64,000 nt of DNA from Tagaea sp. (lineage in GTDB: Bacteria > Pseudomonadota > Alphaproteobacteria > CACIAM-22H2), in NCBI GenBank assembly GCA_041917215.1, contig JAYRYC010000005.1, positions 103,687 through 167,686 on the forward strand, given 5' to 3'. A program made the position numbers and the translations under genes. This document shows, piece after piece, positions 1-13,762 of the stretch. The notes under the pieces were generated by a model. It was not told the origin of the DNA, did no database searches, and was given only the letters and a program-made list of their open reading frames with translations. The first letter of the stretch is position 1, and every line of letters begins with the position of its first letter.

Positions 1-1596
1 GAAGCCCTGAATGCGCGCCTCGGCGACGTTCGTCGTCGTCGTCGTCGTGCCGCCGACGACCTGCTGGATGTAATCCTCCAGATCGTTGACGAAATACGCG
101 GCGCGCACGCGCAGACGGTCGCGCGCGGCGAACACGTCGGAGAAGCGGAAATTCACGCCGCCTTCCTTGTTGAACGACGTTTCCGGCTTCAGATTCGGAT
201 TGGGCACGAAATTGTTGCCGGGGAAGTGCTGGCCGCTGACGTAACGCTCGGTCAGCGACGGCACGCGGAACGCTTCGGCGTAGGACACATAGGGTGCGGC
301 CCACGGCGTGACCTGATAGGCGACCGACGCCTTGGGCGAAACGCGCTCGTCGCTTTTCTGCGTCGGGTTTCCGAAGGACGATTGCTCGAACCGGTCGTAA
401 CGCACGCCCGGCACGATCGTGACCTTGCCGATCTCGATTTCGTTCTGGATGAACGTGCCGAACACGGTTTGGTCGGCGTTGGGATATTCGGTGCGGCGCG
501 CGCCGTTGCGCCGGCTCGACTGCTCGTCGCGATAGGCGTCCATGCCGATTGTCAGCGCGTTCATCTCGGCGCCGAACAGAGAGAAGCGCGACGTGTTTTG
601 CACGTCGAAGCCGTTGGTCCGCAGATCGGTATCGTCCTTTTCGATCGCCGTCGCGGGCAGGACGCGCTTTTCGTAGATGTCGACTTCGTTGCGATAGACG
701 ACCGTCTTCAGGTCGATCAGCGGCGTCGAGGGCGCCGCGTAGGCCCAATTGACCGAGAAGCTGCGCTGCTTGGTGTCGCGGTCGACGATCGTGCTGGTGG
801 TGGTCGCGTTGCCGAGATTGGCGTCGCGCGGGATCGTGTGGTCGTCGGCGTAGAGCAGCGTCGAGATGCCGATCTTGTGGCCGTTGCCGACGTCGTAGCC
901 GCCCTTCAGCAGGCCGCTCGTCACGTCGTCGCCCGAAAAGGGAATGTCGATGCCGCGGCCGTCGGTGTAGTTGCCGTTGGTGCGGCGCGTCACGTTGCCC
1001 ACCACTTCGCCGCCGAAGCCGCGCGCGGCGCCGGTGAGGCTCGCCAGACGCGAGGAATTGTTCGTCTGATAGCCCACACGCGCGCGGCCGCCAAAATTCG
1101 CACCCGGCTTCAGAATGTCTTCGGCGTCGACCGTGCGCATATTGACCGCACCGCCCAGCGCCCCCGACCCGAACAGCAGCGCGCCGGGGCCGCGCGAGAC
1201 GTCCAGGCTCTTCAGCAGATCGGGCTCGAGGAACACGCGGCCGCGATGGCCGGCGTTGAAGTTGTTGCGCACGCCGTCGACGCGCAGCACCACACGCTCG
1301 TCCGACAGACCGCGCACGGTGAACTGGCGCACCGTGTTGCGCGGCACGCCGTTCGTCTCGACGCCGGGCATGTCCTTGACCAGATCGTCGATGCTTTGCG
1401 GCTGGCGGCGCTCGATCTCCTCGCGGTCGACGACGGAGACGGAGCCCGCGACGTCGCCCGCGACCTTTTCGGTGCGCGTGGCGGAGGTGGTGACGGCGTC
1501 GAGCGCCGTGACAGGCGCCGTTTGCGCGTAGGCGGCGGCGGAGAAGACGAGCAAAGCGGGAATGGCGCAGCTGAGCGCCGGACGGCGTGCCAACAT
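1..1596 (-). CDS. TonB-dependent outer-membrane receptor, probably a heme/hemin receptor; 3' end runs off the window (partial)
   Basis: I translated the minus strand by hand; it is not in the track because it has no stop inside the window. The ATG is the reverse complement of cat at 1594-1596. The N-terminus reads MLARRPALSCAIPALLVFSAAAYAQ (signal peptide) followed by a TonB-box/plug-like region (TALDAVTTSATRTEK...VSVVDREEIERRQPQSIDDLVKDMPGVE), then typical receptor barrel sequence. It lies directly downstream of a hemP-like ORF, as hemP/hmuP lies upstream of hemR/hmuR in characterised heme-uptake loci. Confidence 0.8.
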   Translation of the reverse strand, partial: MLARRPALSCAIPALLVFSAAAYAQTAPVTALDAVTTSATRTEKVAGDVAGSVSVVDREEIERRQPQSIDDLVKDMPGVETNGVPRNTVRQFTVRGLSDERVVLRVDGVRNNFNAGHRGRVFLEPDLLKSLDVSRGPGALLFGSGALGGAVNMRTVDAEDILKPGANFGGRARVGYQTNNSSRLASLTGAARGFGGEVVGNVTRRTNGNYTDGRGIDIPFSGDDVTSGLLKGGYDVGNGHKIGISTLLYADDHTIPRDANLGNATTTSTIVDRDTKQRSFSVNWAYAAPSTPLIDLKTVVYRNEVDIYEKRVLPATAIEKDDTDLRTNGFDVQNTSRFSLFGAEMNALTIGMDAYRDEQSSRRNGARRTEYPNADQTVFGTFIQNEIEIGKVTIVPGVRYDRFEQSSFGNPTQKSDERVSPKASVAYQVTPWAAPYVSYAEAFRVPSLTERYVSGQHFPGNNFVPNPNLKPETSFNKEGGVNFRFSDVFAARDRLRVRAAYFVNDLEDYIQQVVGGTTTTTTNVAEARIQGF

Positions 1597-1693
1597 ATGG
1601 CGGACTCCTTGAACTTGGAGACCGTTGCTGGCTGGCTTGTCCGGAGCGCTCGCGCCCCGCTTGGCTGGCTGGCTGGGTCGAAGATTGTTTAGG

Positions 1694-1873
1694 TCACTTG
1701 GTCAGCAGCAGCTTTCCCGCACCCGTTACCTTCAGCCGATAGATCGATCCGGCATGGACGATCTTCACTTCGGACCGCCCCGCCAATATTTCGCGGCTGT
1801 CGACCGTAAGCTCGGCGTCGGGCGGCGTATCGGCGGGCGCGGCAACGGGGGCAGTCGAGTTGCTGCGACGCAT
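1694..1873 (-). CDS. hemP: HemP/HmuP-family hemin-uptake small protein (59 aa)
   Basis: This is a small ORF I found by hand; it falls below the track's length cut-off, and the 66-aa ORF listed at 1689-1889 is a different, off-frame reading. The translation is MRRSNSTAPVAAPADTPPDAELTVDSREILAGRSEVKIVHAGSIYRLKVTGAGKLLLTK. The C-terminal EV-I-H-G-YRL--T--GKL-LTK pattern is the HemP signature. There is no in-frame ATG between the upstream stop and 1873. Confidence 0.7.
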   Translation of the reverse strand: MRRSNSTAPVAAPADTPPDAELTVDSREILAGRSEVKIVHAGSIYRLKVTGAGKLLLTK

Positions 1874-1892
1874 GGGGGTGAAATAGCACCCG

Positions 1893-1928
1893 CGAATCTT
1901 AAATGCAAATGATTCGCACTAGCATTCT
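1893..1928. promoter_or_regulatory. AT-rich overlapping palindromes upstream of hemP; candidate iron-responsive (Fur/Irr/RirA-type) operator
   Basis: The sequence is cGAATCttaaatgcaaatGATTCg, overlapping AATGCaaatgattcgcactaGCATT. It is an AT-rich island inside GC-rich DNA, lying between the hemP start and the mnmA 3' end. Confidence 0.35.
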
Positions 1929-1974
1929 CAAAATAGATTGTAACGGTCCTACCCCTTTGAAAGGGCGCCATTTT

Positions 1975-3093
1975 TTACTTTTGTTTGCGCTGAATCCAGC
2001 CGCCGCCAAGCACGCGATTGCCGTCATAGAAGACGGCGGCTTGACCGGCGGCGACGCCGTATTCCGGTTCGGCGAGGACGAGCTCGGCCCTGTCCCCTTC
2101 CCCGCGCTCTAGATGCGCTGGCTTGGGCGACGTCGTGGAGCGGATTTTGACGGCGACATCCGCGCTATCGATCGCGCGCGGTCCCAGCCAATTCACGCCG
2201 GCCAGCGCCACGCGCCGTTCGGCCAACGCTTCGCGCGGGCCGACGACCACGCGCTTCAATTCGGGATCGACGCGCAGGACGTAAAGCGGCTCGGCATCGG
2301 GGCCGCGCGATTGCGACAACGCCAGACCGCGCCGCTGGCCGATCGTGTAGTGGATCGTGCCTTCGTGGCGGCCCAGCACGTTGCCGTGCAGATCGACGAT
2401 ATCGCCGGGCTCCGCCGCACCGGGCTTCAAACGCTCGACGAGCTTGGCGTAATTGCCGTCGGGCACGAAGCAGATATCCTGGCTGTCGGGCTTGGAAGCG
2501 ACCGGCAAACCCAAGCGCTCGGCTTCCGCGCGCACTTGCGTCTTGGGCATGCCGCCCAAGGGAAACCGCAAAAACTCGAGTTGCTCGCGCGTCGTCGCGA
2601 ACAGGAAATAGCTCTGATCGCGCGTATCGTCCTCGGCGCGATGAAGCTCCGCACCCTCCGGCCCCGCCACGCGGCGCGCGTAATGCCCGGTCGCCAAAGC
2701 GTCGGCGTTGAGATCCTTGGCGACCGCCAGCAGATCGCGGAACTTGACCGTGCGATTGCACTGGATGCACGGGATCGGCGTTTCGCCGCGCGTGTAGCTG
2801 TCGACGAATTCGTCGATCACCGCGTCGCGAAAACGGCTTTCGTAATCGAGCACGTAATGCGGAATGCCGATGCGGTCGGCGACGTTGCGCGCGTCGTGGA
2901 TATCCTGGCCGGCACAGCACGCGCCCTTCTTCTGGACGGCCGCGCCATGATCGTAGAGCTGGAGCGTGACGCCGACGACGTCGTAGCCCGCCTCCTTCAT
3001 CAACGCCGCAACGACGGAGGAATCCACCCCGCCGGACATCGCGACGACGACGCGCGCACCCGGCCGCAGACCGAGGGCATCCGGCATGGTCAC
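1975..3093 (-). CDS. mnmA: tRNA-specific 2-thiouridylase MnmA
   Basis: The protein carries the PP-loop motif [13 protein letters not shown], the C-IQCN motif and the overall MnmA/TrmU fold sequence. MnmA takes sulfur from the IscS persulfide, which fits its position at the end of the isc array. Confidence 0.9.
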
Positions 3094-3779
3094 GGCAAGC
3101 GCTCCAGCCCCATCCGCCAGAACGAGGTTTCCAGGCGGCAGGCACGATCAAAGATCGTCGCGAGCGATTCGAAGCGACCGCCGCCGGCGCGCGTATACCA
3201 CAGGCGGTCGACGAAATCGGCCTTGCCGCGCGCGATGCGGCGATAATCGTCGCTCGAATAGGCGGCGATCCAATCGTTGTAGCGATTGCCTTCTTCGCGC
3301 CGCCAATCGGCTTCCTCGAGGCGCATCGCGATCTCGGCATAGCCCACGGTGCAAGGCACGAGCGCCGTCACGAGATCGAGGATATCGCCCTGCATGCCCG
3401 CCTCGAGCACGAAGCGCGTATAGGCGATGGTCGCCTCGGCTTCCTCGTAGGTCTCGATCTCGTCTTTCGAGATGCCCCAGCTTTCGCAATACTTCACGTG
3501 CATCGCCATCTCACCGTCGAGAATGGCTTTGACGCTGTTATTGACGAAAATCATGTCGGCGAGATTCTCGGCCTTATAGACCGCCAGCGCCCAGGCGCGC
3601 GCGAACTGCACCAGGAACAGATAGTCCTGGATCAGATAATGGCGGAAGCTTTCGACCGGCAGCGTGCCGTCGCCAAGCCCCCGCGTGAACGGATGCGTCG
3701 TATACGCGTCCCAGGAATCGCGGCACGCGTCGCGCAGGCGCTCGAACAGACCGTCCTTCTGCCACAGCACGACGCTCAT
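3090..3779 (-). CDS. TenA/thiaminase-II family protein (heme-oxygenase-like fold)
   Basis: The inner ATG at 3779 starts [62 protein letters not shown]. The HPF-...-YLIQDY-FL-F-RA pattern is TenA-like. Its start overlaps the iscX stop by 4 nt (ATGA) and its stop overlaps the mnmA start. Confidence 0.65.
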
Positions 3780-3979
3780 CGCCGCTCCTCCAGCCACGCC
3801 ATCTGGATCGCTTCCAGGATCTTCTCGTTCGACTTGTTCGGGTCGTCCTCGAAGCCGGGCAGCGCCTGGACCCATTTCCACAAATCGGTGAAGCGCAAAT
3901 TCTCGACGTCGGCGTCGGGATGCGCCTCCTCCAACTCGATGGCGATGTCGTTCACATCGGTCCAGCGCAGCTTCTTCAT
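3776..3979 (-). CDS. iscX: Fe-S cluster assembly protein IscX (YfhJ)
   Basis: The 67-aa protein MKKLRWTDVNDIAIELEEAHPDADVENLRFTDLWKWVQALPGFEDDPNKSNEKILEAIQMAWLEE aligns along its whole length with E. coli IscX (..KWTD..EIGEAL...PD.DP..VRFTD...W...L..FDDDP..SNEKILEAI...WL.E). Confidence 0.85.
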   Translation of the reverse strand: MKKLRWTDVNDIAIELEEAHPDADVENLRFTDLWKWVQALPGFEDDPNKSNEKILEAIQMAWLEERR

Positions 3980-3984
3980 CGCAT

Positions 3985-4323
3985 TCAGGCCTTATCGACC
4001 ATCATGTTGCGCGTGGCCGTGGGCAGTGCCACCGTCAAGCCATCGAGCTCTTCGGTCATCGTGATCTGGCAGCCCAGGCGCGAGGTATGCGTCAGGCCGA
4101 AGGCGAGATCGAGCATGTCCTCCTCGTCCTCCGAGGCTTCGGGCAAGCGCTCGTAATCGTCCTTGTCGACGACGATGTGGCAGGTCGAGCAGGCGAGCGA
4201 ACCTTCGCACGCACCCTCGAGCGGCACGTCGTTGCGATGCGCGATTTCGAGCACCGAGAGGCCGACCGGGGCCTCCACTTCCTTCTTCGTGCCGTCGGGA
4301 TAGACGAAAAACATCTTGGGCAT
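3985..4323 (-). CDS. fdx: ISC-type [2Fe-2S] ferredoxin (adrenodoxin-like Fdx)
   Basis: The protein has the motifs [11 protein letters not shown] and GCQI, a C-x5-C-x2-C ... C spacing, and sits in the fdx position between hscA and iscX. Confidence 0.9.
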
Positions 4324-4349
4324 GGGCTTCTCTTCTTTTCCTGAAGTTC

Positions 4350-6212
4350 CTATCCGCCGATATCGGCGACGGCACGGCCCGCGAGCGCTTTGCGGATTCC
4401 GCGATCCATCCGCCGCTCGGCGAAGATCTTGGTGCGGTGTTCGAGTTCTTCGGCAGCACCTTGAATTGCTGCACGATCGGTGCCGGACATCGCGCGCTCG
4501 ACGATTTCGATCGTTTCGTCGATACGCGCGCGTTCTTCGGCCGACAGAAGATCGGCATCGACCGCCAGCGCGGCCTGCACCGCGTTGACGCCGCGGCGCG
4601 CTTCGACGCGCGCTTCGGTCAACAAGCGGCGCTCCATGTCGTCCTGCGCGTTGTCGATCGACGCGCGCAGCATCGCGGCCATTTCGTCCTCGGTCAGGCC
4701 ATAGGACGGCTTCACCTCGATGCGCGATTCAACGCCAGTCGTCGCTTCCTTGGCCGAGACGGTCAGCAGGCCGTCGGCATCGACCGAGAACGTCACGCGG
4801 ATACGCGCGGCACCCGCGACCATCGGCGGGATCCCGTCGAGTTCGAAGCGTGCGAGGGAACGGCATTGATCGACCATCTCGCGCTCGCCCTGCACGACAT
4901 GCAGCGCCATGGCGTTCTGGCCGTCTTGATAGGTCGTGAATTCCTGTGCGCGGCTGACCGGGATCGGCGTGTTGCGCTCGACCACTTTTTCGACGATGCC
5001 GCCCATCGTTTCCAAGCCCAGCGACAGCGGCAGCACGTCAAGCAGCAGCGTATCCGAGCCGGCGGTCAACGCTTCGGCCTGCAACGCCGCCCCCACCGCG
5101 ACGACTTCGTCGGGATCGATATCCGTAAGCGGCGGCTTGCCGAAGAATTCGGCCACGCGCTGGCGCACCAAGGGTACACGCGTCGATCCGCCGACGAGCA
5201 CCACGCCGCCAAGTTCGCCGGGCGCCACGCCCGCATCTTCCAGCGTCGCGGCGGCGATTTGGATCGTCCGCTCGACCAAGGGGGCGATCAGCGTTTCGAA
5301 TTGGGCGCGCGTGAGCTTGTGCTCGCTTTCGGCTTCGCCTAGATCGAGGAAGCCGTCCCAATCGTCGCGATCTGTAAGGCATTCCTTGGCGAGGCGCGCG
5401 GTGACGAGCGCTTGCTTCACATGATCGCGGTCGAGCTTGTCGCCGCGTTCGCCCATGAAGCGTTGCGCGATCGCGTGATCGAAATCGTCCCCGCCCAAGG
5501 CCGCATCGCCGCCGGTCGCGAGGACTTGGAACACGCCGCGCTCCAAGCGCAGCAGCGAGAAATCGAACGTGCCGCCACCCAGGTCGTAGACGGCGTAAAG
5601 ACCTTCGGCCTGGCTATCGAGACCGTAAGCGAGGGCGGCCGCCGTCGGCTCGGCAACGAGGCGCAACACTTCGAGACCGGCAAGGCGGGCCGCATCGCGC
5701 GTCGCGGTACGCGCGGCGTCGTCGAAATAGGCGGGCACGGTCACGACCGCGCGATCGACGGCGCGGCCGAGCGCGATTTCCGCGCGCTGCTTCACCGCGC
5801 GCAAGATGTCCGCGCTGATTTCGACCGGCGTGAGCAAGCGTTCGCCGATTTTGAGACGCGCCATCCCGCCTTCGGCCGGCGGTCCCAATTCGTAGGGCAA
5901 CGCGTCGCCGAGCTTGGCGAGTTCGTCGGGCCCGCGCCCCATCAAACGCTTGATCGACGAGACGACGACTTCCGGATTGTCGAGCAATTCGCGGCGCGCG
6001 AGTTCGCCGACCAGCGGATCGCCTTCGTCGAAATAGGCGACGACCGACGGCACCAGCCCCACGCCGCGGGCATCGCGCACGATCTCGGCCTTCTGGTCGC
6101 GCGAAAACGCGACCACCGAGTTGGTCGTGCCGAGATCGATGCCGACCGCGAGACCCTTTTCGGTCTCGTGGGGCAGCGGCGTCTCGCCCGGTTCGTGAAT
6201 CTGCAGCAACAT
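4350..6212 (-). CDS. hscA: Fe-S cluster chaperone HscA (Hsp70 family)
   Basis: The inner ATG at 6212 gives [10 protein letters not shown]..., matching the E. coli HscA start MALLQISEPG. The protein has the [17 protein letters not shown] and GGDDFD motifs and a C-terminal HscA-specific lid. The track ORF extends 9 codons further upstream to 6239. Confidence 0.9.
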
Positions 6213-6252
6213 GTCGAGCGCGGCCGTTAAAGAAAGCAAACGTTTTGACGAG

Positions 6253-6279
6253 GGCTTCGGCGAACAAGTCGCCGAAGCC
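6253..6279. other. Perfect 11-bp stem hairpin in the hscB-hscA intergenic spacer
   Basis: The sequence is GGCTTCGGCGA-acaag-TCGCCGAAGCC, in the 88-nt gap between the hscB stop and the hscA start. It may be an intra-operon processing or attenuation structure. Confidence 0.3.
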
Positions 6280-6300
6280 GGCAGCAGTTAGCACGAGCAA

Positions 6301-6948
6301 TCAGCGCGCCAGGGTCAGGCGTGCGCGCCGCGCGCGGGCCTCTTCGCCCAATTTGACCAAGTATTTGAGGCGCAGATAACCGCGTTTGGCGGCGATCTTG
6401 TCGCCCGAAGCGAAGTCCGACGCAAGGGCCGAAAGGGCGGCCTCGGCATCGAGTTTGGCTTGGCGCGCGATGGCCTCGACCGCGGCCGGATTATCGGCCT
6501 CCATCAAGGCTTCGCGGCGCTCCAATTGCTCCATGAGCAATTCTTCGTCGGCGATGGTGTGGGCCCCCTCGCCCTCGACCTTTTCGCCCCAAAGATCGAG
6601 CAGATAGGCCGCGCGCGACAGCGGATCCTTCAAGATCTCGTAGGCCTCGTTGAAGGCCACCGCCTGGCTTTGCGAGATCTGTTTGGCCTTCGGCGCGGCC
6701 GCCGCGAAACGATCCGGATGCAGCTGGCGCTGGAAGCCGAAATAGAGCTGGTCGAGCACCGGCACTTTGATGTCGAAATCGCGCTTGAGACCCAATCGCG
6801 CGAAATGGTCGAGCGGGACCGGCGGCTGCACCGCCTTGCAGGTGTCGCAAAACAAACCGCCCCACGCGACCGGCCCTTTGCAGGACCAGCACACGGCGAG
6901 AGCGGGACCGTTATTCGTCGAAGCGGATGTCTGCGGCGCGTTCGTCAT
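6301..6948 (-). CDS. hscB: Co-chaperone HscB (J-domain) with N-terminal zinc-finger
   Basis: The J-domain is recognisable (DHFARLGL...QLYFGFQRQLHPDRF) and is preceded by a CxxC...CxxC tetracysteine finger (CWSCKG...CDTCKA), the Jac1-like architecture. It sits in the expected position between iscA and hscA. Confidence 0.85.
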   Translation of the reverse strand: MTNAPQTSASTNNGPALAVCWSCKGPVAWGGLFCDTCKAVQPPVPLDHFARLGLKRDFDIKVPVLDQLYFGFQRQLHPDRFAAAAPKAKQISQSQAVAFNEAYEILKDPLSRAAYLLDLWGEKVEGEGAHTIADEELLMEQLERREALMEADNPAAVEAIARQAKLDAEAALSALASDFASGDKIAAKRGYLRLKYLVKLGEEARARRARLTLAR

Positions 6949-6971
6949 CGAGCATTAGAACCAGCGCCCGA

Positions 6972-7364
6972 TCAGACGTGGAAACTATCCCCGCAGCCGC
7001 AACGGCCCTTTTCGTTCGGATTGCGGAAGACGAAGCCCGATTGCAGCTTCTCCTCGACGAAATCCATCTCGGTGCCGAAGACGAACATCGACGCCTTCGG
7101 ATCGATGAAGATCGAGATGCCGGCTTCGGGTTCGACCACTTCGTCGCCCGGGCCCTTCGCGTCGGCGTATTCGAGCGTGTAGCTGAGGCCCGAGCAGCCG
7201 CGCGTGCGCACGCCCACGCGCACGCCCGCCGACGGCTTGCCGCGCTGGGCGAGCAGCGCTTTCACGCGCCCGATCGCCGCTTCCGTCACCGTGATGGCGG
7301 GCGGACGCGCGCGCGGAGCCCGCTTCACCGGGGCGGTCGTCGTCGTGTTCGCGGCGTCGGTCAT
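6972..7364 (-). CDS. iscA: A-type Fe-S carrier IscA (HesB family)
   Basis: The protein has the C-terminal CGCGxSF motif plus a conserved Cys (GCSGLSY), and lies in the iscU-iscA-hscB context. Confidence 0.9.
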   Translation of the reverse strand: MTDAANTTTTAPVKRAPRARPPAITVTEAAIGRVKALLAQRGKPSAGVRVGVRTRGCSGLSYTLEYADAKGPGDEVVEPEAGISIFIDPKASMFVFGTEMDFVEEKLQSGFVFRNPNEKGRCGCGDSFHV

Positions 7365-7379
7365 CGCAACAACCCTCGC

Positions 7380-7763
7380 TTAAGCGCCGTGCTTGCGCTT
7401 GTAATCGTCGATCGCGGCCTTGATCGCGTCTTCGGCCAGTACCGAGCAATGGATCTTCACCGGCGGCAGCGCCAGATGCTTGGCGATGTCGGTGTTCTTG
7501 ATCGTCGAGGCTTCGTCGATCGACTTGCCCTTGACCCATTCGGTCACGAGCGACGACGAAGCGATCGCCGAGCCGCAGCCGAAGGTCTTGAACTTCGCGT
7601 CCTCGATGATGCCGTCGGCGCTGACTTTGATCTGCAGCTTCATCACGTCGCCGCAGGCGGGCGCGCCAACCAGCCCCGTGCCGACGGCGGCGTCGTTCTT
7701 GTCGAACGAACCGACATTGCGGGGGTTCTCGTAGTGGTCGACGACCTTTTCGCTGTAGGCCAT
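7380..7763 (-). CDS. iscU: Fe-S cluster scaffold IscU
   Basis: The protein has the signature motifs HYENPRNVGS, GAPACGD, FKTFGCGSAIASSS and LPPVKIHCS. Confidence 0.95.
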   Translation of the reverse strand: MAYSEKVVDHYENPRNVGSFDKNDAAVGTGLVGAPACGDVMKLQIKVSADGIIEDAKFKTFGCGSAIASSSLVTEWVKGKSIDEASTIKNTDIAKHLALPPVKIHCSVLAEDAIKAAIDDYKRKHGA

Positions 7764-7802
7764 TTTCGTTTCTCCTTATTCGATCCGGTTATAGCCCGAA
7801 GA

Positions 7803-9053
7803 TCAGTGGGCCGCCCACTGGATCGATTTGATGTCGATACCTTCTTGCGCCATTTCCCACAGCGGGCTCATCGAGCGCAGCTTGGAAACGGCCTGGACGA
7901 TGCGATCGGCCGCGTAATCGACTTCCGCTTCGGTCGTGAAGCGGCCGAAGCCGATGCGCAGGCTGGTATGCGCGAGTTCTTCCTCGACGCCCAGCGCGCG
8001 CAGCACGTAGCTGGGTTCCAGCGACGCCGATGTGCAGGCCGAGCCCGAGGAAACGCACAAATCCTTGATGCCCATCATCAGCCCCTCGCCTTCCACGTAA
8101 GCGAAGGAGAGGTTGAGATTGCCGGGCAAGCGGTTCGAGAAATCGCCGTTGAGGAACACCTCCGGCAGCTTGTCGTGAACCGTTTTGAGGAAACGATCGC
8201 GCAACGTGGTCAGACGCGCGTTTTCCGAAGCCATTTCCTGGCGCGCGATCTCGGCGGCCTTGCCAAGGCCCACGCAAAGCGGCGTGGGCAACGTGCCCGA
8301 GCGCATGCCGCGCTCCTGCCCGCCGCCATGGATCAAAGCCTGCAAGCGCACGCGCGGCTTGCGGCGCACGAACAACGCGCCGATGCCCTTGGGCCCGTAG
8401 ATCTTGTGGCCGGAGATCGACATAAGATCGATCTTCATCGCCTCGACATCGAGCGGAATTTTGCCGAAGGCCTGCGCGCAATCGGTGTGGAAGAACGCGC
8501 CCTTCTTGCGGCACAGCGCGCCGATCTCGGCCAATGGCTGGATCACGCCGATCTCGTTATTCGCCGCCATGATGGAGACGAGCACGGTCTTGTCGGTGAT
8601 CGCGGCTTCCAGTTCCGCGAGATCGACGAGGCCGTCGGTCTTCACCGGCAGATAGGTGACCGTGAACCCTTCCTGCTCCAGATGGCGGCAGGTATCGAGC
8701 ACGCATTTATGCTCGGTCACCACGGTGACGATGTGGTTCTTCTGGTCCTTATAGAAATGCGCCACGCCCGCGATCGCGAGATTGTTCGATTCCGTGGCGC
8801 CGGAGGTGAACACGATCTCGCGCTCGTCCGCACCGATCAGATCGGCGACCTGCTTGCGCGCGGTTTCGACCGCTTCTTCGGCTTCCCAGCCGTAATGATG
8901 GTTGCGGCTGTGCGGATTGCCGAACTTCTCGATGAAGAACGGCATCATCGCGTCGAGCACGCGCGGATCCATCGGCGTCGTCGCCTGATAATCCAGATAG
9001 ACGGGCTTCGTCGGCGCGTTCGCCAGCCTGTCGTTGGTCGTTTGCGTGCTCAT
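7803..9053 (-). CDS. iscS: Cysteine desulfurase IscS
   Basis: The inner ATG at 9053 gives [33 protein letters not shown].... The protein has the PLP-lysine motif ([12 protein letters not shown]) and the catalytic-Cys loop SSGSACTS. The track ORF extends upstream into GC-rich junk. Confidence 0.9.
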
Positions 9054-9079
9054 AAAATCTCTCGCTCCCGTACCCGAAA

Positions 9080-10171
9080 CTACGCTGCCCGCGCCGCCTG
9101 CCGGCGCCGGGCGAATTCGATATAGGCGGCGGCGAAACCGTCGAGCTGCGCCGCTGTCGTCGCCGGCCCGAACGAGACCCGAATGGCCTCCGCCGCGCCG
9201 TCCCCCGCCCCCATCGCCAGCAACGTGGCGCTGGGGCCGACCTTGCCCGACGAACACGCCGAACCGGCCGACACCGCATACCCGGCAAGGTCGAGCGCCA
9301 TGACCTGGGTATGCGCCGGAACGCCCGGCAGACCGATGCTCAACGTGTTGGGCAGGCGGGGGGCCTTCCTACCGTAGAAGATGGCCCCTATTCCGGCGGA
9401 ATCAACCATGTCGATCACATGGTCTCTCGCCGCATAAAGCTTTGACCAAGCGTCGATTTCGCGCCGCGCCAGCTCGGCCGCCGCACCGAAGGCGACGATC
9501 CCCGGCAGATTGGGGGTGCCGGAGCGCCAGCCGCGCTCCTGCCCGCCGCCCAGCCACAGGGGCGAAACCGCGCGTTTTTCGCGCACGACCAGGGCGCCCA
9601 CACCCATCGGCCCGCCGATTTTATGCGCCGACAGCGCCAGCGTATCGACGTCGAGTGCGGCGAAATCGACCGGGATTTTGCCGGCGGCCTGCACGGCGTC
9701 GCAATGGACGCGCAAGCCCGCCGCATGCGCGCGCGCGGCAAGCTCGGCCACCGGCTGGATCACGCCGGTTTCATTGTTCGCCAGCATCACCGCGACGAGC
9801 TTCACGCCCGCGATGTCGGCGCGGTCCAAATCCAGCACGCCATCCGCCGTGACGGGCAGCACGCGCCCATCGGGCAAATTGGCGCGCACCGCGTCATGCT
9901 CGATCGCCGAATACGCGGCGTCGGCGTCGAAGCCCGACAATGCGAGCGCGTTGGCTTCCGTGCCGCCGCTGGTGAACACCACGCGATCGGCCGGCGCGTT
10001 GACGAGGGCGGCGACTTGTTCGCGCGCCTTCTCGATCAGTGCACGCGCCGCACGACCGGCGTTATGGACAGACGAAGGATTGCCCGCCTCGACCAAAGCA
10101 CGCGCCATCGCCGCCGCCGCTTCCGGGCGGACGGGCACACTCGCGTTCCAGTCGAGATAGGCGGTCGGCAT
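9080..10171 (-). CDS. Second, NifS-like class-V aminotransferase / cysteine desulfurase
   Basis: The protein has a PLP-lysine motif ([12 protein letters not shown]) and an active-Cys loop SAGSACSSG. It is shorter than IscS and lacks the IscS C-terminal tail. It sits between iscR and iscS. Confidence 0.8.
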
Positions 10172-10176
10172 CGCCG

Positions 10177-10662
10177 TTACTGCGCCGCGACCATCGGGAT
10201 CGCTTCGGCCGTTTCGGCCTCCGTCCCGTCGATCACGCCCGCCGTGCCGAGCACGCGGCGCGACACCACGTTCGCCAGCGTCACCGACGACAGATAGAGA
10301 TGGATCTGGTTACCCAGCTCCTCCCACAGATCATGCGTAAAGCAGCGCGCTTTGTTGGCGCGGCAGCCCACGGGCGAACCCGGCGCGCAACGCGTCGCGC
10401 GGATCGGCTCGTCGACCGCGAGGATAATGTCGGAAATGCGCGTCTGATCGCTGGCATGGGCGAGCAGATAACCGCCGCCCGGCCCGCGCACGGAGCGCAC
10501 CAGCCCGCCGCGCCGCAGCTTGGCGAAAAGCTGTTCGAGATAGGAGAGCGAAATCTCCTGACGCTCGGCGATATCGGCCAGCGCCACGGGATTGCCTTGG
10601 CTGGTCGATGCGAGATCGACCATCGCCATCACGGCGTAGCGGCCTTTGGTGGAAAGCTTCAT
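10177..10662 (-). CDS. iscR: Rrf2-family Fe-S-cluster-sensing regulator IscR
   Basis: The protein starts MKLSTKGRYAVMAMVDLA (Rrf2 HTH) and has the three-Cys cluster C-x5-C-x5-C (CAPGSPVGCRANKARC). It is the first regulator gene of the isc array. Confidence 0.85.
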   Translation of the reverse strand: MKLSTKGRYAVMAMVDLASTSQGNPVALADIAERQEISLSYLEQLFAKLRRGGLVRSVRGPGGGYLLAHASDQTRISDIILAVDEPIRATRCAPGSPVGCRANKARCFTHDLWEELGNQIHLYLSSVTLANVVSRRVLGTAGVIDGTEAETAEAIPMVAAQ

Positions 10663-10680
10663 GGGATCAACCTCCCGATC

Positions 10681-11397
10681 TCAAACGCGGTCATTCGCGT
10701 AAACACGCAATGGAGCGGCTTCGCGTTCGTCCAGCGCCTTGCGCTGGGCGGCGACGATGCCTTCGAGCTCGGCCATGCGCGCGCGCAGGATGCCGAGATC
10801 GCCTTCGAATCGTTCGAGCGCGCGGGCGACGGGGTCTTGCACCTCGCCCGTCGTGCCATAGGCGCAGAAATCGTCGTTCTTCGGCCGGCCAACGACCTTC
10901 GCGGGAATGCCCACCACCGTGGCACCCGCCGGCACCGCTTCGAGAACGACGGCGTTGGAACCGACGCGCGCGTTCTTGCCGACCGTGAACGGCCCGAGGA
11001 TTTTGGCACCCGCGCCGACGATCACGCCGTCGTCCAGCGTAGGATGGCGCTTGCCCTTGTCGAGCGACGTGCCGCCGAGCGTGACGCCTTGATAGAGCGT
11101 CACGTCGTCGCCGATCTCCGCCGTCTCGCCAACCACGACACCCATGCCGTGATCGATGAAGAAGCGTTGGCCGATGCGCGCGGCGGGGTGAATTTCGATT
11201 CCGGTCAGGAAGCGCGAGAACACCGCGATCGCACGGGCGACCAGTTTCAGGCCGCGCGTCCAACACCCATGCGCCAGACGGTGCAGCAGCACCGCATGGA
11301 AGCCGGGGTAGCAAAGCACAACCTCCAGCCGCGAACGGGCGGCCGGGTCGCGGGCCAAGATGGCCTCCATATCCGCGCGAATTGCCTTGAAACTCAT
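10681..11397 (-). CDS. cysE: Serine O-acetyltransferase CysE
   Basis: The protein has hexapeptide-repeat left-handed beta-helix sequence ([41 protein letters not shown]) and a SAT N-terminal domain. The ATG at 11397 starts [14 protein letters not shown]. It lies directly upstream of iscR. Confidence 0.85.
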
Positions 11398-11464
11398 TGT
11401 CTTAACCAATTAACATTCGGAACTGCCTCGAAAAAGCGGTATCCAAAAACCTTCCTGGCCCGCC

Positions 11465-11489
11465 ATACCCGAGAAACGCAGTCGGAATT
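11465..11489. promoter_or_regulatory. Candidate type-1 IscR binding site upstream of cysE-iscR
   Basis: ATACCCGAGAAACGCAGTCGGAATT matches about 17 of 25 positions of the E. coli type-1 consensus ATASYYGACTRwwwYAGTCRRSTAT. It lies 68-92 nt upstream of the cysE start, in the only sizeable promoter gap of the array. Confidence 0.3.
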
Positions 11490-11645
11490 TAGGGAGACCG
11501 ACAAAATCGGTCAAGTATGTTTATCCCTTGCCGCCGGAAGCCGAGTCGTCGTTTCGTACAGCCGCAAAACATAAGCAAATCCAACTTTGGGCTCGATCGC
11601 TGCGGATTTGCCAAAACAGTTCACCTCGTGGAGTAGGACCCGGGA

Positions 11646-12488
11646 ATGCCGGATGTGACGATCAACGGTGCCGAAGGCCGGCTGGAGGGCAAGTTCGCGC
11701 CCGCCAGTGCGGGCGACCGCGCACCCATCGCGCTTCTGCTGCATCCCCATCCGCAGCACGGCGGCACGATGCACAACAAGGTCGTGTACACGCTGAACTT
11801 GGCTTTTCAGAAGGCCGGGTTCTCGACCTTGCGCTTCAATTTCCGCGGCGTGGGCCGCAGCCAAGGCAGCTATGGCCGCGGCGAAGGCGAATTGCAGGAC
11901 GCGGCTTCGGCGCTCGATTGGATTCAGCAGAACCTGCCGAATTCGCGCGGCTGCTGGATCGCGGGTTTCTCGTTCGGCGCTTGGATCGGCATGCAGCTGC
12001 TGATGCGCCGTCCGGAGATCGATCGCTTCATCTCCGTCGCCCCGCCCGCCAACATCTTTGATTTCTCGTTTCTGGCGCCCTGCCCCTCGTCGGGCCTGAT
12101 CGTTCAGGGCGACAAGGACGAGATCGTGCCCGAGGAATCGGTGCTCAAGCTTTCCGAGAAATTGGCGAAGCAAAAGGACATCGTCGTCGATTTCCGCGTC
12201 ATCAAGGGGGCAAACCATTTCTTCGCCGACCGGCTCGATAAGCTCGATGCCATGGTCGCGGAATACGCCGCCTCGGCCCTGCCCACGATGCGCGACGCGG
12301 CCCCGCCGCCGCCGGTGATGGCGCCGCCGCCCCCGCCGCAGCCGGAACGCAAGCCGCCGGCGATTTCCCTGCCGCCCGACGCGCCCAGCCGCGCGGAAGC
12401 GAAGAAGGCCGCCGCCGCCAAGGCGAAGCCCAAGGCCGCCGCGCCGAAGGCCGCGGTCAAAAAAGCCGCGCCCAAAGCGAAACGCTGA
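11646..12488 (+). CDS. Small alpha/beta-hydrolase with a C-terminal Pro/Ala/Lys-rich histone-H1-like tail
   Basis: The hydrolase core reads IAGFSFGAW, with the nucleophile elbow G-F-S-F-G. The last 80 residues are low complexity: [19 protein letters not shown]...[29 protein letters not shown]. The tail is in frame up to the stop. Confidence 0.7.
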
Positions 12489-12523: not shown

Positions 12524-13762
12524 ATGACGAAATTCCGCTCCGAATTCCTGCAAGCGGCGCAAGCGCGCGGCTTCATCCACCAGATCACCGACCCCGAAGG
12601 TCTCGACGCGCGCTTGGCGTCGGGCAAGCAGATGGTCGCGTATATCGGGTTCGATGCGACGGCGGACTCGCTGCATGTCGGGCATCTGTTCCAGATCATG
12701 ACGCTGCGCCTCTTTCAGCGCTGCGGCCACCGGCCGCTGGCGTTGATGGGCGGCGGCACGACCAAGATCGGCGATCCCTCGGGCAAGGACGAAGCGCGCA
12801 AGCTGCTGTCCGAAGCCGATATCGCGGCCAACGTCGCCAGCATCAAGCGCAGCTTCGACAATTATCTCGATTTCGGCGAAGGCAAGGCGCTGATGGTCGA
12901 CAACGCCGAATGGCTCGACAAGCTGCTCTACATTCCGCTGCTGCGCGATATCGGCCGCCATTTCTCGGTCAATCGCATGCTGACGATGGATTCCGTCAAG
13001 CTGCGCTTGGAACGCGACCAGCCTTTGTCGTTCCTCGAATTCAACTACATGATTTTGCAGAGCTACGATTTCGTCGAGCTCGCCAAGCGCTACGATTGCG
13101 CCATGCAGATGGGCGGCTCCGACCAATGGGGCAACATCGTCATGGGCGTCGAGCTCGGCCGGCGTGTCGCCGAGAAGCAGCTCTTCGGTTTGACGACGCC
13201 GCTGCTGACCACCGCCTCGGGCGCCAAGATGGGCAAGACCGCCGCCGGTGCGGTGTGGCTCAGCCAGCAGCGCCTGTCGGTCTACGACTACTACCAATAT
13301 TGGCGGAACACCGAAGACGCCGACGTGATCCGCTTCATGAAGCTGTTCACCGATTTGCCGCTCGACGAGATCGAGAAGCTCGCCAAGCTGCAAGGGGCCG
13401 AGATCAACGAGGCGAAGAAGATCCTCGCCTTCGAGACGACGAAATTGTGCCACGGCGAAGCCGCCGCCGCCGAAGCCGCCGAGACCGCGCGCCGCGCATT
13501 CGAGGAAGGCCAATCGGCCGAAGGCTTGCCGACGGTCGAGTTGCCGAAAGCCGAACTCGCCGCCGGGATCGGCGTGCTCGATCTTTTCGTGCGCGCGGGC
13601 CTCGCCGCATCGAAGGGCGAAGCGCGCCGGCTGGTGCAGGGCAAGGGCGCCAAGCTCGACGACGCGATCGTCGAAAGCGACACGGCTGTCGTGAAGCTTG
13701 ACGGCGGCACGGTCAAACTCACCGCCGGCAAAAAGCGCCACGCGCTGGTGAAGGCAGTTTAA
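12524..13762 (+). CDS. tyrS: Tyrosyl-tRNA synthetase
   Basis: The protein has the class-I HIGH-type motif region ([14 protein letters not shown]) and a KMGKT motif (KMSKS equivalent), plus a C-terminal S4-like domain. Confidence 0.9.

Follow-up and report, generated by a model that had tools for sequence, protein, structure and literature searches.

The 64,000-nucleotide (nt) stretch of DNA analyzed here (the window) comes from contig JAYRYC010000005.1 of Tagaea sp. and carries near its left end a compact array of genes for iron-sulfur (Fe-S) cluster assembly, in which tenA, the gene of a thiaminase II, lies between iscX and mnmA. The array consists of twelve consecutive minus-strand genes at positions 1975-11409, each identified by profile searches, namely, cysE, iscR, a short nifS-like gene, iscS, iscU, iscA, hscB, hscA, fdx, iscX, tenA, and mnmA. 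From cysE to mnmA, the gaps between them are 18, 5, 32, 39, 15, 23, 88, 26, 5, -4, and -4 nt, i.e., never more than 88 nt. The gene order, the common strand, and the compactness agree with what an earlier note on this DNA had described. The extent it gave (positions 1-11489) needs correction, since the array proper begins at 1975, its promoter lies at roughly 11486-11514, and positions 1-1873 belong to a separate heme unit. Likewise, of the ATGA overlaps that the note placed at both ends of tenA, the one at the iscX/tenA junction is present, but the tenA/mnmA junction reads GTGA; should mnmA in fact begin with the ATG at 3087, it would read TGAccATG. The same array, with proteins that are 94-100% identical, is found in three public metagenome-assembled genomes (L001-L003; two of Tagaea sp. 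and one of a 'Proteobacteria bacterium'), and the host is a Tagaea-like alphaproteobacterium of the Rhodospirillales in the broad sense. The array recurs in L006, L034, L036, and L092-L094, where TenA is merely 50-58% identical, and its order is therefore not due to chance.

The tenA gene (3090-3779, minus strand) encodes a thiaminase II (aminopyrimidine aminohydrolase) of the Cys-containing class. Against TIGR04306, the salvage_TenA equivalog profile, the protein scores 162.8 bits (cutoff 130) and covers profile positions 3-207 of 208; it matches PF03070 at 1.7e-50. Its best solved relative is the alphaproteobacterial (Ruegeria-type) structure 3mvu (1e-51), followed by Helicobacter pylori TenA, yeast THI20, and Bacillus subtilis TenA. 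Residues D52, C143, and E217 fall on the QD, PC, and E..FW motifs of the latter three proteins, motifs in which B. subtilis TenA has its catalytic residues Asp44, Cys135, and Glu205. These three residues and Y53, Y120, Y147, Y174, F220, and W221 show no or almost no variation in 90 homologues, whether or not the gene is linked to Fe-S genes. By its sequence, TenA is thus a canonical thiaminase II that is predicted to be catalytically intact. It shares the fold family, the catalytic Asp/Cys/Glu, and the pocket Tyr/Phe residues with thiaminase II proteins of the TenA_C type (B. subtilis 1yaf/2qcx and the Ruegeria-type 3mvu). It differs from them in gene location, at the tail of an Fe-S operon and not in a thi, ylmB, or thiXYZ cluster. 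The usual association with thiamine genes or a thiamine pyrophosphate (TPP) riboswitch is not seen here, as its neighbors are iscX and mnmA, and an Rfam scan of the 64 kb found no TPP riboswitch (one tRNA was the only family matched).

A second cysteine of TenA, C98 (3486-3488; the codon of the catalytic C143 is at 3351-3353), lies four residues past the invariant His94 and is itself invariant in all 90 alphaproteobacterial TenAs and in 3mvu. The aligned residue is Ala in B. subtilis TenA, Ile in H. pylori TenA, and Leu in yeast THI20. TenA is also the fastest-evolving protein of the array, e.g., the L006 orthologue is 58% identical, compared with 94% for IscX, 91% for Fdx, 91% for IscS, and 74% for MnmA.

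The position of tenA is conserved far beyond Tagaea. TenA has more than 5000 homologues in the databases, and in nine genome or contig look-ups seeded with TenA (53-70% identity) tenA directly follows iscX or fdx in every case. Among metagenome contigs, L006 has all twelve genes, L005 has a full ISC (iron-sulfur cluster) operon with an integrase gene after tenA, and L004 has iscX, tenA, and mnmA. Among named genomes, Rhodospirillum centenum (L007) carries cysE, iscR, nifS-like, hscB-like, fdx, and tenA, and Aerophototrophica (L009) has the same set without a called cysE and with eamA after tenA. Minwuia and a relative (L010, L011) carry cysE, two desulfurase genes, fdx, and tenA, and Arenibaculum (L100) has iscR, two desulfurase genes, fdx, tenA, a 79-codon open reading frame (ORF), and mnmA. 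A metagenome scan seeded with the TenA alignment added 80 loci at 47-54% identity, which were annotated by tblastn with the proteins of the window, selected neighbor genes being additionally scanned against Pfam. In the 77 of these loci that were evaluable (at least 450 nt of upstream flank), the gene directly 5' of tenA on the same strand was fdx in 39, iscX in 6, and iscA/sufA in 3, a total of 48, so that fdx is the commonest immediate upstream neighbor among the genes scored. The upstream stop codon and tenA overlap or are at most 30 nt apart in 48 of 59 linked loci, by an optimistic measure that takes the most favorably placed candidate start codon of tenA. mnmA follows tenA in 28 of the 37 Fe-S-linked loci with enough flank, as against one of the 23 scored unlinked loci (L059), and there an ISC operon lies about 1.1 kb upstream of tenA with one extra gene between them. 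Sampling seeded with IscX again yielded iscX, tenA, and mnmA in L092-L094. Further Fe-S genes are attached to 45 of the 46 evaluable fdx-tenA pairs; the only isolated pair is that of Niveispirillum (L099:6676-8580), where fdx, tenA, and eamA stand without another Fe-S gene within 6.6 kb upstream.

The linkage also outlasts changes in the Fe-S machinery itself. It is retained where IscU and HscBA have been lost (L007, L009-L018, L100), including reduced loci that consist of iscR, nifS-like, fdx, tenA, and mnmA (L012, L029, L035, L081). In L046 (2-8663), a SUF-type operon of nifS-like, sufB, sufC, sufD, GST, sufS, sufT, and sufA ends in a tenA of the same clade, and the linkage therefore spans two non-homologous Fe-S machineries; the same ending is found in L050 and L071. 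The fdx/iscX-tenA linkage is of long standing, robust, and more durable than the ISC scaffold genes. The earlier note had named the absence of tenA from this position in all related genomes as a refutation of its reading; tenA is present there, down to about 50% identity. A recent insertion of tenA is rejected, since its position is conserved at 47-70% identity. In a neighbor-joining tree (midpoint-rooted, no bootstrap), the unlinked TenAs fall in several subclades nested among linked ones, which suggests that the linkage is ancestral and has been lost repeatedly.

The contexts of unlinked tenA genes are heterogeneous and include tgt, NUDIX, metallo-beta-lactamase-fold, and molybdopterin oxidoreductase genes. 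In one unlinked subclade (L041:6081-6731, L043, L044), tenA lies 3 nt downstream of tgt (queuine tRNA-ribosyltransferase; PF01702, 4e-148; L044:6808-7998), so that this clade is for a second time found beside a gene for wobble-position tRNA modification. In the marine genome L059 (a 4.8-Mb contig; 6828-7979), the order is iscX, an alpha/beta-hydrolase gene (383 codons), tenA, and mnmA, and in the Minwuia-type loci L010 and L011 an alpha/beta-hydrolase gene comes immediately after tenA. That these hydrolases are non-orthologous formylaminopyrimidine amidohydrolases is speculation.

Upstream of cysE, a sigma-70-like promoter (TTGACC-17-TAAATT, 11514-11486, minus strand) is the sole promoter-like site on the minus strand between 1500 and 12000, and the same scan found no promoter-like site directly before tenA. 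The promoter is overlapped by a palindrome, TTGACCGATTTTGTCGG (11498-11514, minus strand), that resembles a type-1 IscR site and would serve as one; 19 of 25 positions fit the Escherichia coli IscR type-1 consensus. A relaxed IscR-box pattern (YYGACYRWWWYWGTCRR, at most one mismatch) has its single match in the 64 kb at this promoter. In twelve related loci (L005, L006, L007, L009, L012, L017, L018, L029, L032, L035, L051, and L081), the DNA ahead of the first gene of the operon has the same TTGAC..(A/T)GTCGG..TATA layout. The IscR of the array has C92, C100, C107, and H110 as cluster ligands and S40, Y41, E43, Q44, and R59 as DNA-reading residues (read from the translation). No convincing internal terminator was found, and the three minus-strand terminator-like matches all lie within coding sequence; terminator-like matches were not clearly enriched (14 observed, compared with 9.6 +/- 3.1 in shuffled sequences).

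The reading that is favored, at a confidence of about even, is that the array forms one IscR-controlled unit in which salvage of the thiamine pyrimidine is co-expressed with Fe-S biogenesis, perhaps with a bypass of ThiC as the benefit. In such a unit, CysE would supply cysteine to the ISC machinery, and MnmA would consume persulfide sulfur for 2-thiouridine (s2U34) in tRNA. TenA would hydrolyze 4-amino-5-aminomethyl-2-methylpyrimidine to the thiamine precursor 4-amino-5-hydroxymethyl-2-methylpyrimidine (HMP) by way of Cys143, Asp52, and Glu217. Under Fe-S shortage, cluster-free IscR would derepress the operon, and TenA would be made as well, because the start codon of tenA overlaps the stop codon of iscX and no promoter-like site is seen ahead of it. 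The salvaged HMP would then bypass ThiC, the radical S-adenosylmethionine (radical-SAM) [4Fe-4S] enzyme that synthesizes HMP phosphate, so that Fe-S sparing would be the likeliest benefit. ThiC is indeed a radical-SAM Fe-S enzyme, and among vitamin supplements thiamine is the most critical one to E. coli cells whose clusters are poisoned by copper (PMC9576991); the ThiC bypass as the rationale for the coupling is nevertheless something that we infer. Co-regulation is favored over a changed chemistry on account of the intact thiaminase site, the interleaving of linked and unlinked family members, and the fast evolution of TenA.

Several points weigh against this reading. Co-transcription from cysE to mnmA and control by IscR are plausible, as judged from spacing and motif matches only. 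The relaxed IscR-box pattern had been relaxed using this very sequence, and 18% of shuffled sequences yield at least one match to it, so that the single match at the promoter is weak evidence. E. coli ThiC withstands H2O2 and superoxide and shows no particular sensitivity to either (PMC9576991). In the clade as a whole, 28 of the 77 evaluable loci (about 36%) are unlinked. In Dongia (L095-L097), the slot between iscX and mnmA is occupied by an unrelated ORF of 437/438 codons (L095:6204-7517, L096:6204-7520, L097:3611-4927; 4-nt overlap with iscX) in place of tenA. This ORF matches no Pfam or NCBIfam family and gives only a weak alpha/beta-hydrolase signal. Pure co-regulation does not explain the fidelity of tenA to fdx, which extends to the isolated L099 pair, and simple co-regulation accounts neither for the adjacency of tenA to mnmA and tgt nor for the clade-specific invariant C98. 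Finally, tyrS and a divergent alpha/beta-hydrolase gene, which have no obvious Fe-S role, are syntenic across the same loci. Conserved adjacency alone is therefore no proof of functional coupling, and synteny inertia is a serious rival.

According to this rival, tenA is an ordinary salvage gene at the tail of an ancestral alphaproteobacterial Fe-S operon, kept in a slowly rearranging region where its adjacency has no selective meaning. This is a possible explanation, although it is regarded as rather doubtful. It fits a neighborhood of tyrS, anmK (in part of the loci), alpha/beta-hydrolase gene, and Fe-S operon that is kept without obvious functional reason, the status of TenA as the least conserved array protein (58% in L006, against 94% for IscX), the Dongia slot being filled by another gene, and a linkage that has seemingly been lost in several separate subclades with no visible sequence change. 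It fits less well that the linkage holds at 47-55% protein identity through at least four operon architectures, including the exchange of ISC for SUF, and that what lies downstream of the block varies between loci. The tight spacing seen in 48 of the 59 linked loci (with the most favorably placed candidate start) and the restriction of mnmA to linked loci, never following tenA in truly unlinked ones that were scored, likewise speak against mere inertia.

A dedicated role of TenA in Fe-S assembly or thiolation, in which it would work with the ISC ferredoxin and/or MnmA, was the idea of the earlier note, which had preferred an ISC-linked function to thiamine salvage. This is now considered unlikely. 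Its two conceivable forms are an action of TenA on C5-aminomethyl pyrimidines, e.g., 5-aminomethyl-(2-thio)uracil from turnover of 5-aminomethyl-2-thiouridine (nm5s2U), or on preQ1-like bases, and a redox gating of TenA through its second conserved cysteine. In its favor, fdx is the commonest upstream neighbor (39/77), and in Niveispirillum fdx and tenA stay together apart from other Fe-S genes. Furthermore, tenA adjoins two genes for wobble-base tRNA modification (mnmA where linked; tgt in L041, L043, and L044), C98 is confined to the clade and 3mvu in the comparison with B. subtilis and H. pylori TenA and yeast THI20, and the substrates would, by chemical analogy, share an aryl-CH2-NH2 leaving group. 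However, the residues that recognize and attack the thiamine pyrimidine in B. subtilis TenA are all invariant, the protein clears the equivalog cutoff for thiaminase II, and linked and unlinked members are interleaved without a diagnostic position (their frequencies differ by about 0.5 at most in any one alignment column). SUF-type loci, moreover, have tenA without fdx, and only one of the 46 evaluable fdx-tenA pairs is isolated. The fast evolution of TenA and the different gene in the Dongia slot weaken the claim further. A combined form seems quite improbable: the TenA clade would be a salvage enzyme and, in addition, a working partner of the ISC ferredoxin/MnmA module, either acting on other C5-aminomethyl bases (wobble-uridine or queuosine type) or with Cys143 gated by Cys98. 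Such a partnership would explain the persistence of fdx-tenA-mnmA through loss of ISC genes and replacement by SUF.

It is very unlikely that TenA protects the two desulfurases by removing 4-amino-5-aminomethyl-2-methylpyrimidine (a primary amine and thiamine breakdown product) before it reacts with their pyridoxal 5'-phosphate (PLP): the support is circumstantial, in that aminopyrimidines may antagonize PLP enzymes and one or two genes for class-V PLP desulfurases nearly always run in the same direction as tenA, but its immediate neighbors are fdx, iscX, and mnmA and not the desulfurase genes, and the product HMP ('toxopyrimidine') is itself a classical vitamin B6 antagonist. Two further candidates were rejected. 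A heme oxygenase or iron donor, suggested by the fold and by the nearby hemP and heme-receptor genes, does not agree with the retained thiaminase residues or with heme genes that form a separate unit and are missing from this position in relatives. A di-iron oxidase of the CADD/HDO type using Fdx is rejected from inspection of the sequence, in which only two histidines are invariant and the E90..H94 pair is shared with ordinary TenAs.

Co-regulated salvage remains the preferred explanation. Whatever the cause of the linkage, Fe-S operons across much of the Alphaproteobacteria have long and widely carried the gene of a canonical thiaminase II at their tail, and it is kept even where the machinery has been replaced. 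A regulatory coupling, if real, would make this a clean case of Fe-S sparing in a vitamin pathway, with salvage replacing the radical-SAM enzyme ThiC, and would connect iron status with the scavenging of thiamine pyrimidines from the environment, a process that matters for marine and soil Alphaproteobacteria. R. centenum is a cultivable relative that carries the fdx-tenA linkage. Full-text searches found no literature linking TenA with IscX, IscR, or Fe-S assembly; the linkage of tenA with an Fe-S operon is not described in the literature searched, although every gene family involved is already known.

The remainder of the array is a standard ISC operon with additions typical of the lineage, and precedents exist for cysE, mnmA, the iscR-nifS-like pair, and the HSC20 finger of HscB. 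All of its genes are on the minus strand. cysE (10681-11409; alternative ATG at 11397) encodes a serine O-acetyltransferase (TIGR01172, 251.3 bits; cutoff 210.65), and iscR (10177-10662) an Rrf2-family Fe-S regulator (TIGR00738, 136.8; cutoff 73.3) whose best match, TIGR02010, is reached at 187.4 bits, under the equivalog cutoff of 207.55. The housekeeping cysteine desulfurase gene iscS (7803-9047; TIGR02006, 708.2; cutoff 643.2) is followed by those of the scaffold IscU (7380-7763; TIGR01999, 231.9; cutoff 192.4) and the A-type carrier IscA (6972-7364; TIGR00049, 116.2; cutoff 58.8), for which the IscA equivalog is the best match at 119.5 bits, under its cutoff of 150.6. hscA (4350-6212) encodes an Hsp70-type chaperone (TIGR01991, 831.8; cutoff 708.55) of 620 residues when read from the ATG at 6212, the same length as in the orthologues of L006 and L092. 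The [2Fe-2S] ferredoxin encoded by fdx (3985-4323) is of the ISC type with a PF00111-type (Fer2) domain, and TIGR02007 is its best match (88.9 bits, under the cutoff of 132.1). iscX lies at 3776-3979 (TIGR03412, 108.9; cutoff 40.4), and the last gene, mnmA (1975-3093), encodes a tRNA 2-thiouridine(34) synthase (NF001138, 437.2; cutoff 284) with all three domains matched (PF03054, PF20259, PF20258). IscS, IscU, HscB, HscA, and IscX each exceed their equivalog cutoffs and are encoded in canonical order; the region encodes a complete, mitochondria-like ISC machinery of IscS, IscU, IscA, zinc-finger HscB, HscA, Fdx, and IscX. Around this core stand its old companions in the lineage, i.e., cysE, the iscR/nifS-like pair, tenA, and mnmA. 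Compared with the gammaproteobacterial iscRSUA-hscBA-fdx-iscX operon (E. coli, Azotobacter vinelandii), the core genes, their order, and the Cys3His ligands of IscR are the same. The array adds the nifS-like gene between iscR and iscS, the tetracysteine finger of HscB, and tenA and mnmA after iscX. For a cysE gene beside isc genes, A. vinelandii offers a precedent with its cysE2, located upstream of them.

The short NifS-like class-V desulfurase (9080-10171, 363 residues; PF00266, 8.6e-60) remains under the equivalog cutoffs of NifS (278, cutoff 530.75), DndA (237, cutoff 480), and IscS (209.5, cutoff 643.2), and keeps the SAHK lysine motif and the SAGSAC cysteine loop. An orthologue follows iscR in essentially every related locus, whether of the ISC, reduced, or SUF type, and by its sequence the protein is assigned to a separate alphaproteobacterial subfamily of class-V PLP desulfurase-like proteins. 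In B. subtilis, cymR-yrvO-mnmA combines an Rrf2 regulator, a desulfurase, and mnmA in an abbreviated s2U pathway. In the array, too, mnmA shares its strand with the genes of an Rrf2 regulator and a NifS/IscS-type desulfurase, and the reduced relatives L012, L029, L035, and L081 resemble cymR-yrvO-mnmA with fdx and tenA inserted. By analogy with YrvO-MnmA, it is possible that the NifS-like enzyme acts as a direct sulfur donor for MnmA.

In Alphaproteobacteria, an iscR-iscS pair heads the isc-suf operon and is regulated by IscR and iron (PMC11475020, PMC4618611). The second desulfurase, rightly set apart from the classical gammaproteobacterial operon in the earlier note, corresponds to this known pair (PMC11475020). 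With the iscR-iscS-sufBCDS-sufT-sufA operon of Caulobacter and Rhodobacter (PMC11475020, PMC4618611), the array shares the Rrf2/IscR and NifS-like head and a promoter-overlapping IscR-like box, and the metagenomic loci share the neighborhood of divergent alpha/beta-hydrolase gene and tyrS. The interior of the array, in contrast, is a full ISC and not a SUF set, and neither tenA nor mnmA is reported for the published Caulobacter and Rhodobacter operons (PMC11475020, PMC4618611).

hscB (6301-6948; TIGR00714, 73.1; cutoff 46.75) encodes a co-chaperone with an intact HPD motif and an N-terminal tetracysteine motif, C20/C23/C34/C37, that aligns with CWNC...FCPQC of human HscB (3bvo), the best PDB match (1e-23). 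The four cysteines are unchanged in 6 relatives, and the domain has a Pfam model of its own, PF18256 (HscB_4_cys). The finger noticed earlier is thus real, but its assignment to the Jac1 type is rejected, since yeast Jac1 is without the finger (its chains align from residue 73) and 3bvo covers it; E. coli and Vibrio HscB, like Jac1, align solely after it. The finger is of the HSC20 type and constitutes a putative metal site. As in human mitochondrial HscB/HSC20, a CWxC...FCxxC domain is followed by an HPD-containing J-domain and by the C-terminal domain typical of HscB; the protein differs in being bacterial and operon-encoded. With its tandem desulfurases and HSC20-type finger, the locus documents mitochondria-like features of alphaproteobacterial ISC systems. 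In R. centenum (L007:8918-9550) and Aerophototrophica (L009:8935-9540), an HscB-like gene lies between the nifS-like gene and fdx, and iscS, iscU, iscA, hscA, and iscX are not at this locus. The tetracysteine finger of these HscB-like proteins is intact and the HPD of the J-domain is changed to DPA; they are orphan zinc-finger HscB remnants, presumably independent of Hsp70.

The G+C content across the window is 62-69%, and all real genes within 1-11500 are on the minus strand; three plus-strand ORFs of 488-732 codons (226-1692, 6927-9125, 10039-11574) are antisense artefacts of high G+C. Downstream of mnmA, an A+T-rich spacer of about 100 nt contains a near-palindrome (TGCGAATCATTTGCA, 1904-1918) that resembles a Fur-type box. 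Beyond it, and outside the array, hemP (1694-1873, minus strand; PF10636) forms a heme-uptake unit with the gene of a TonB-dependent heme/hemoglobin receptor (TIGR01785; minus strand, within 1-1873 and running off the window edge). This unit is not at the equivalent position in relatives, and across the loci the genes 3' of the tenA/mnmA block vary (hemP, hemB, PAS, integrase, transposase, EamA); in Dongia, an SCP2 gene comes after mnmA. On the other side, divergent from the array and on the plus strand, are an alpha/beta-hydrolase gene (Peptidase_S15/Hydrolase_4-like, 11646-12488) and tyrS (12524-13762). In almost every related locus (L005-L100), these two genes, often together with anmK, border the Fe-S operon, which shows an unusually stable synteny of the whole neighborhood.

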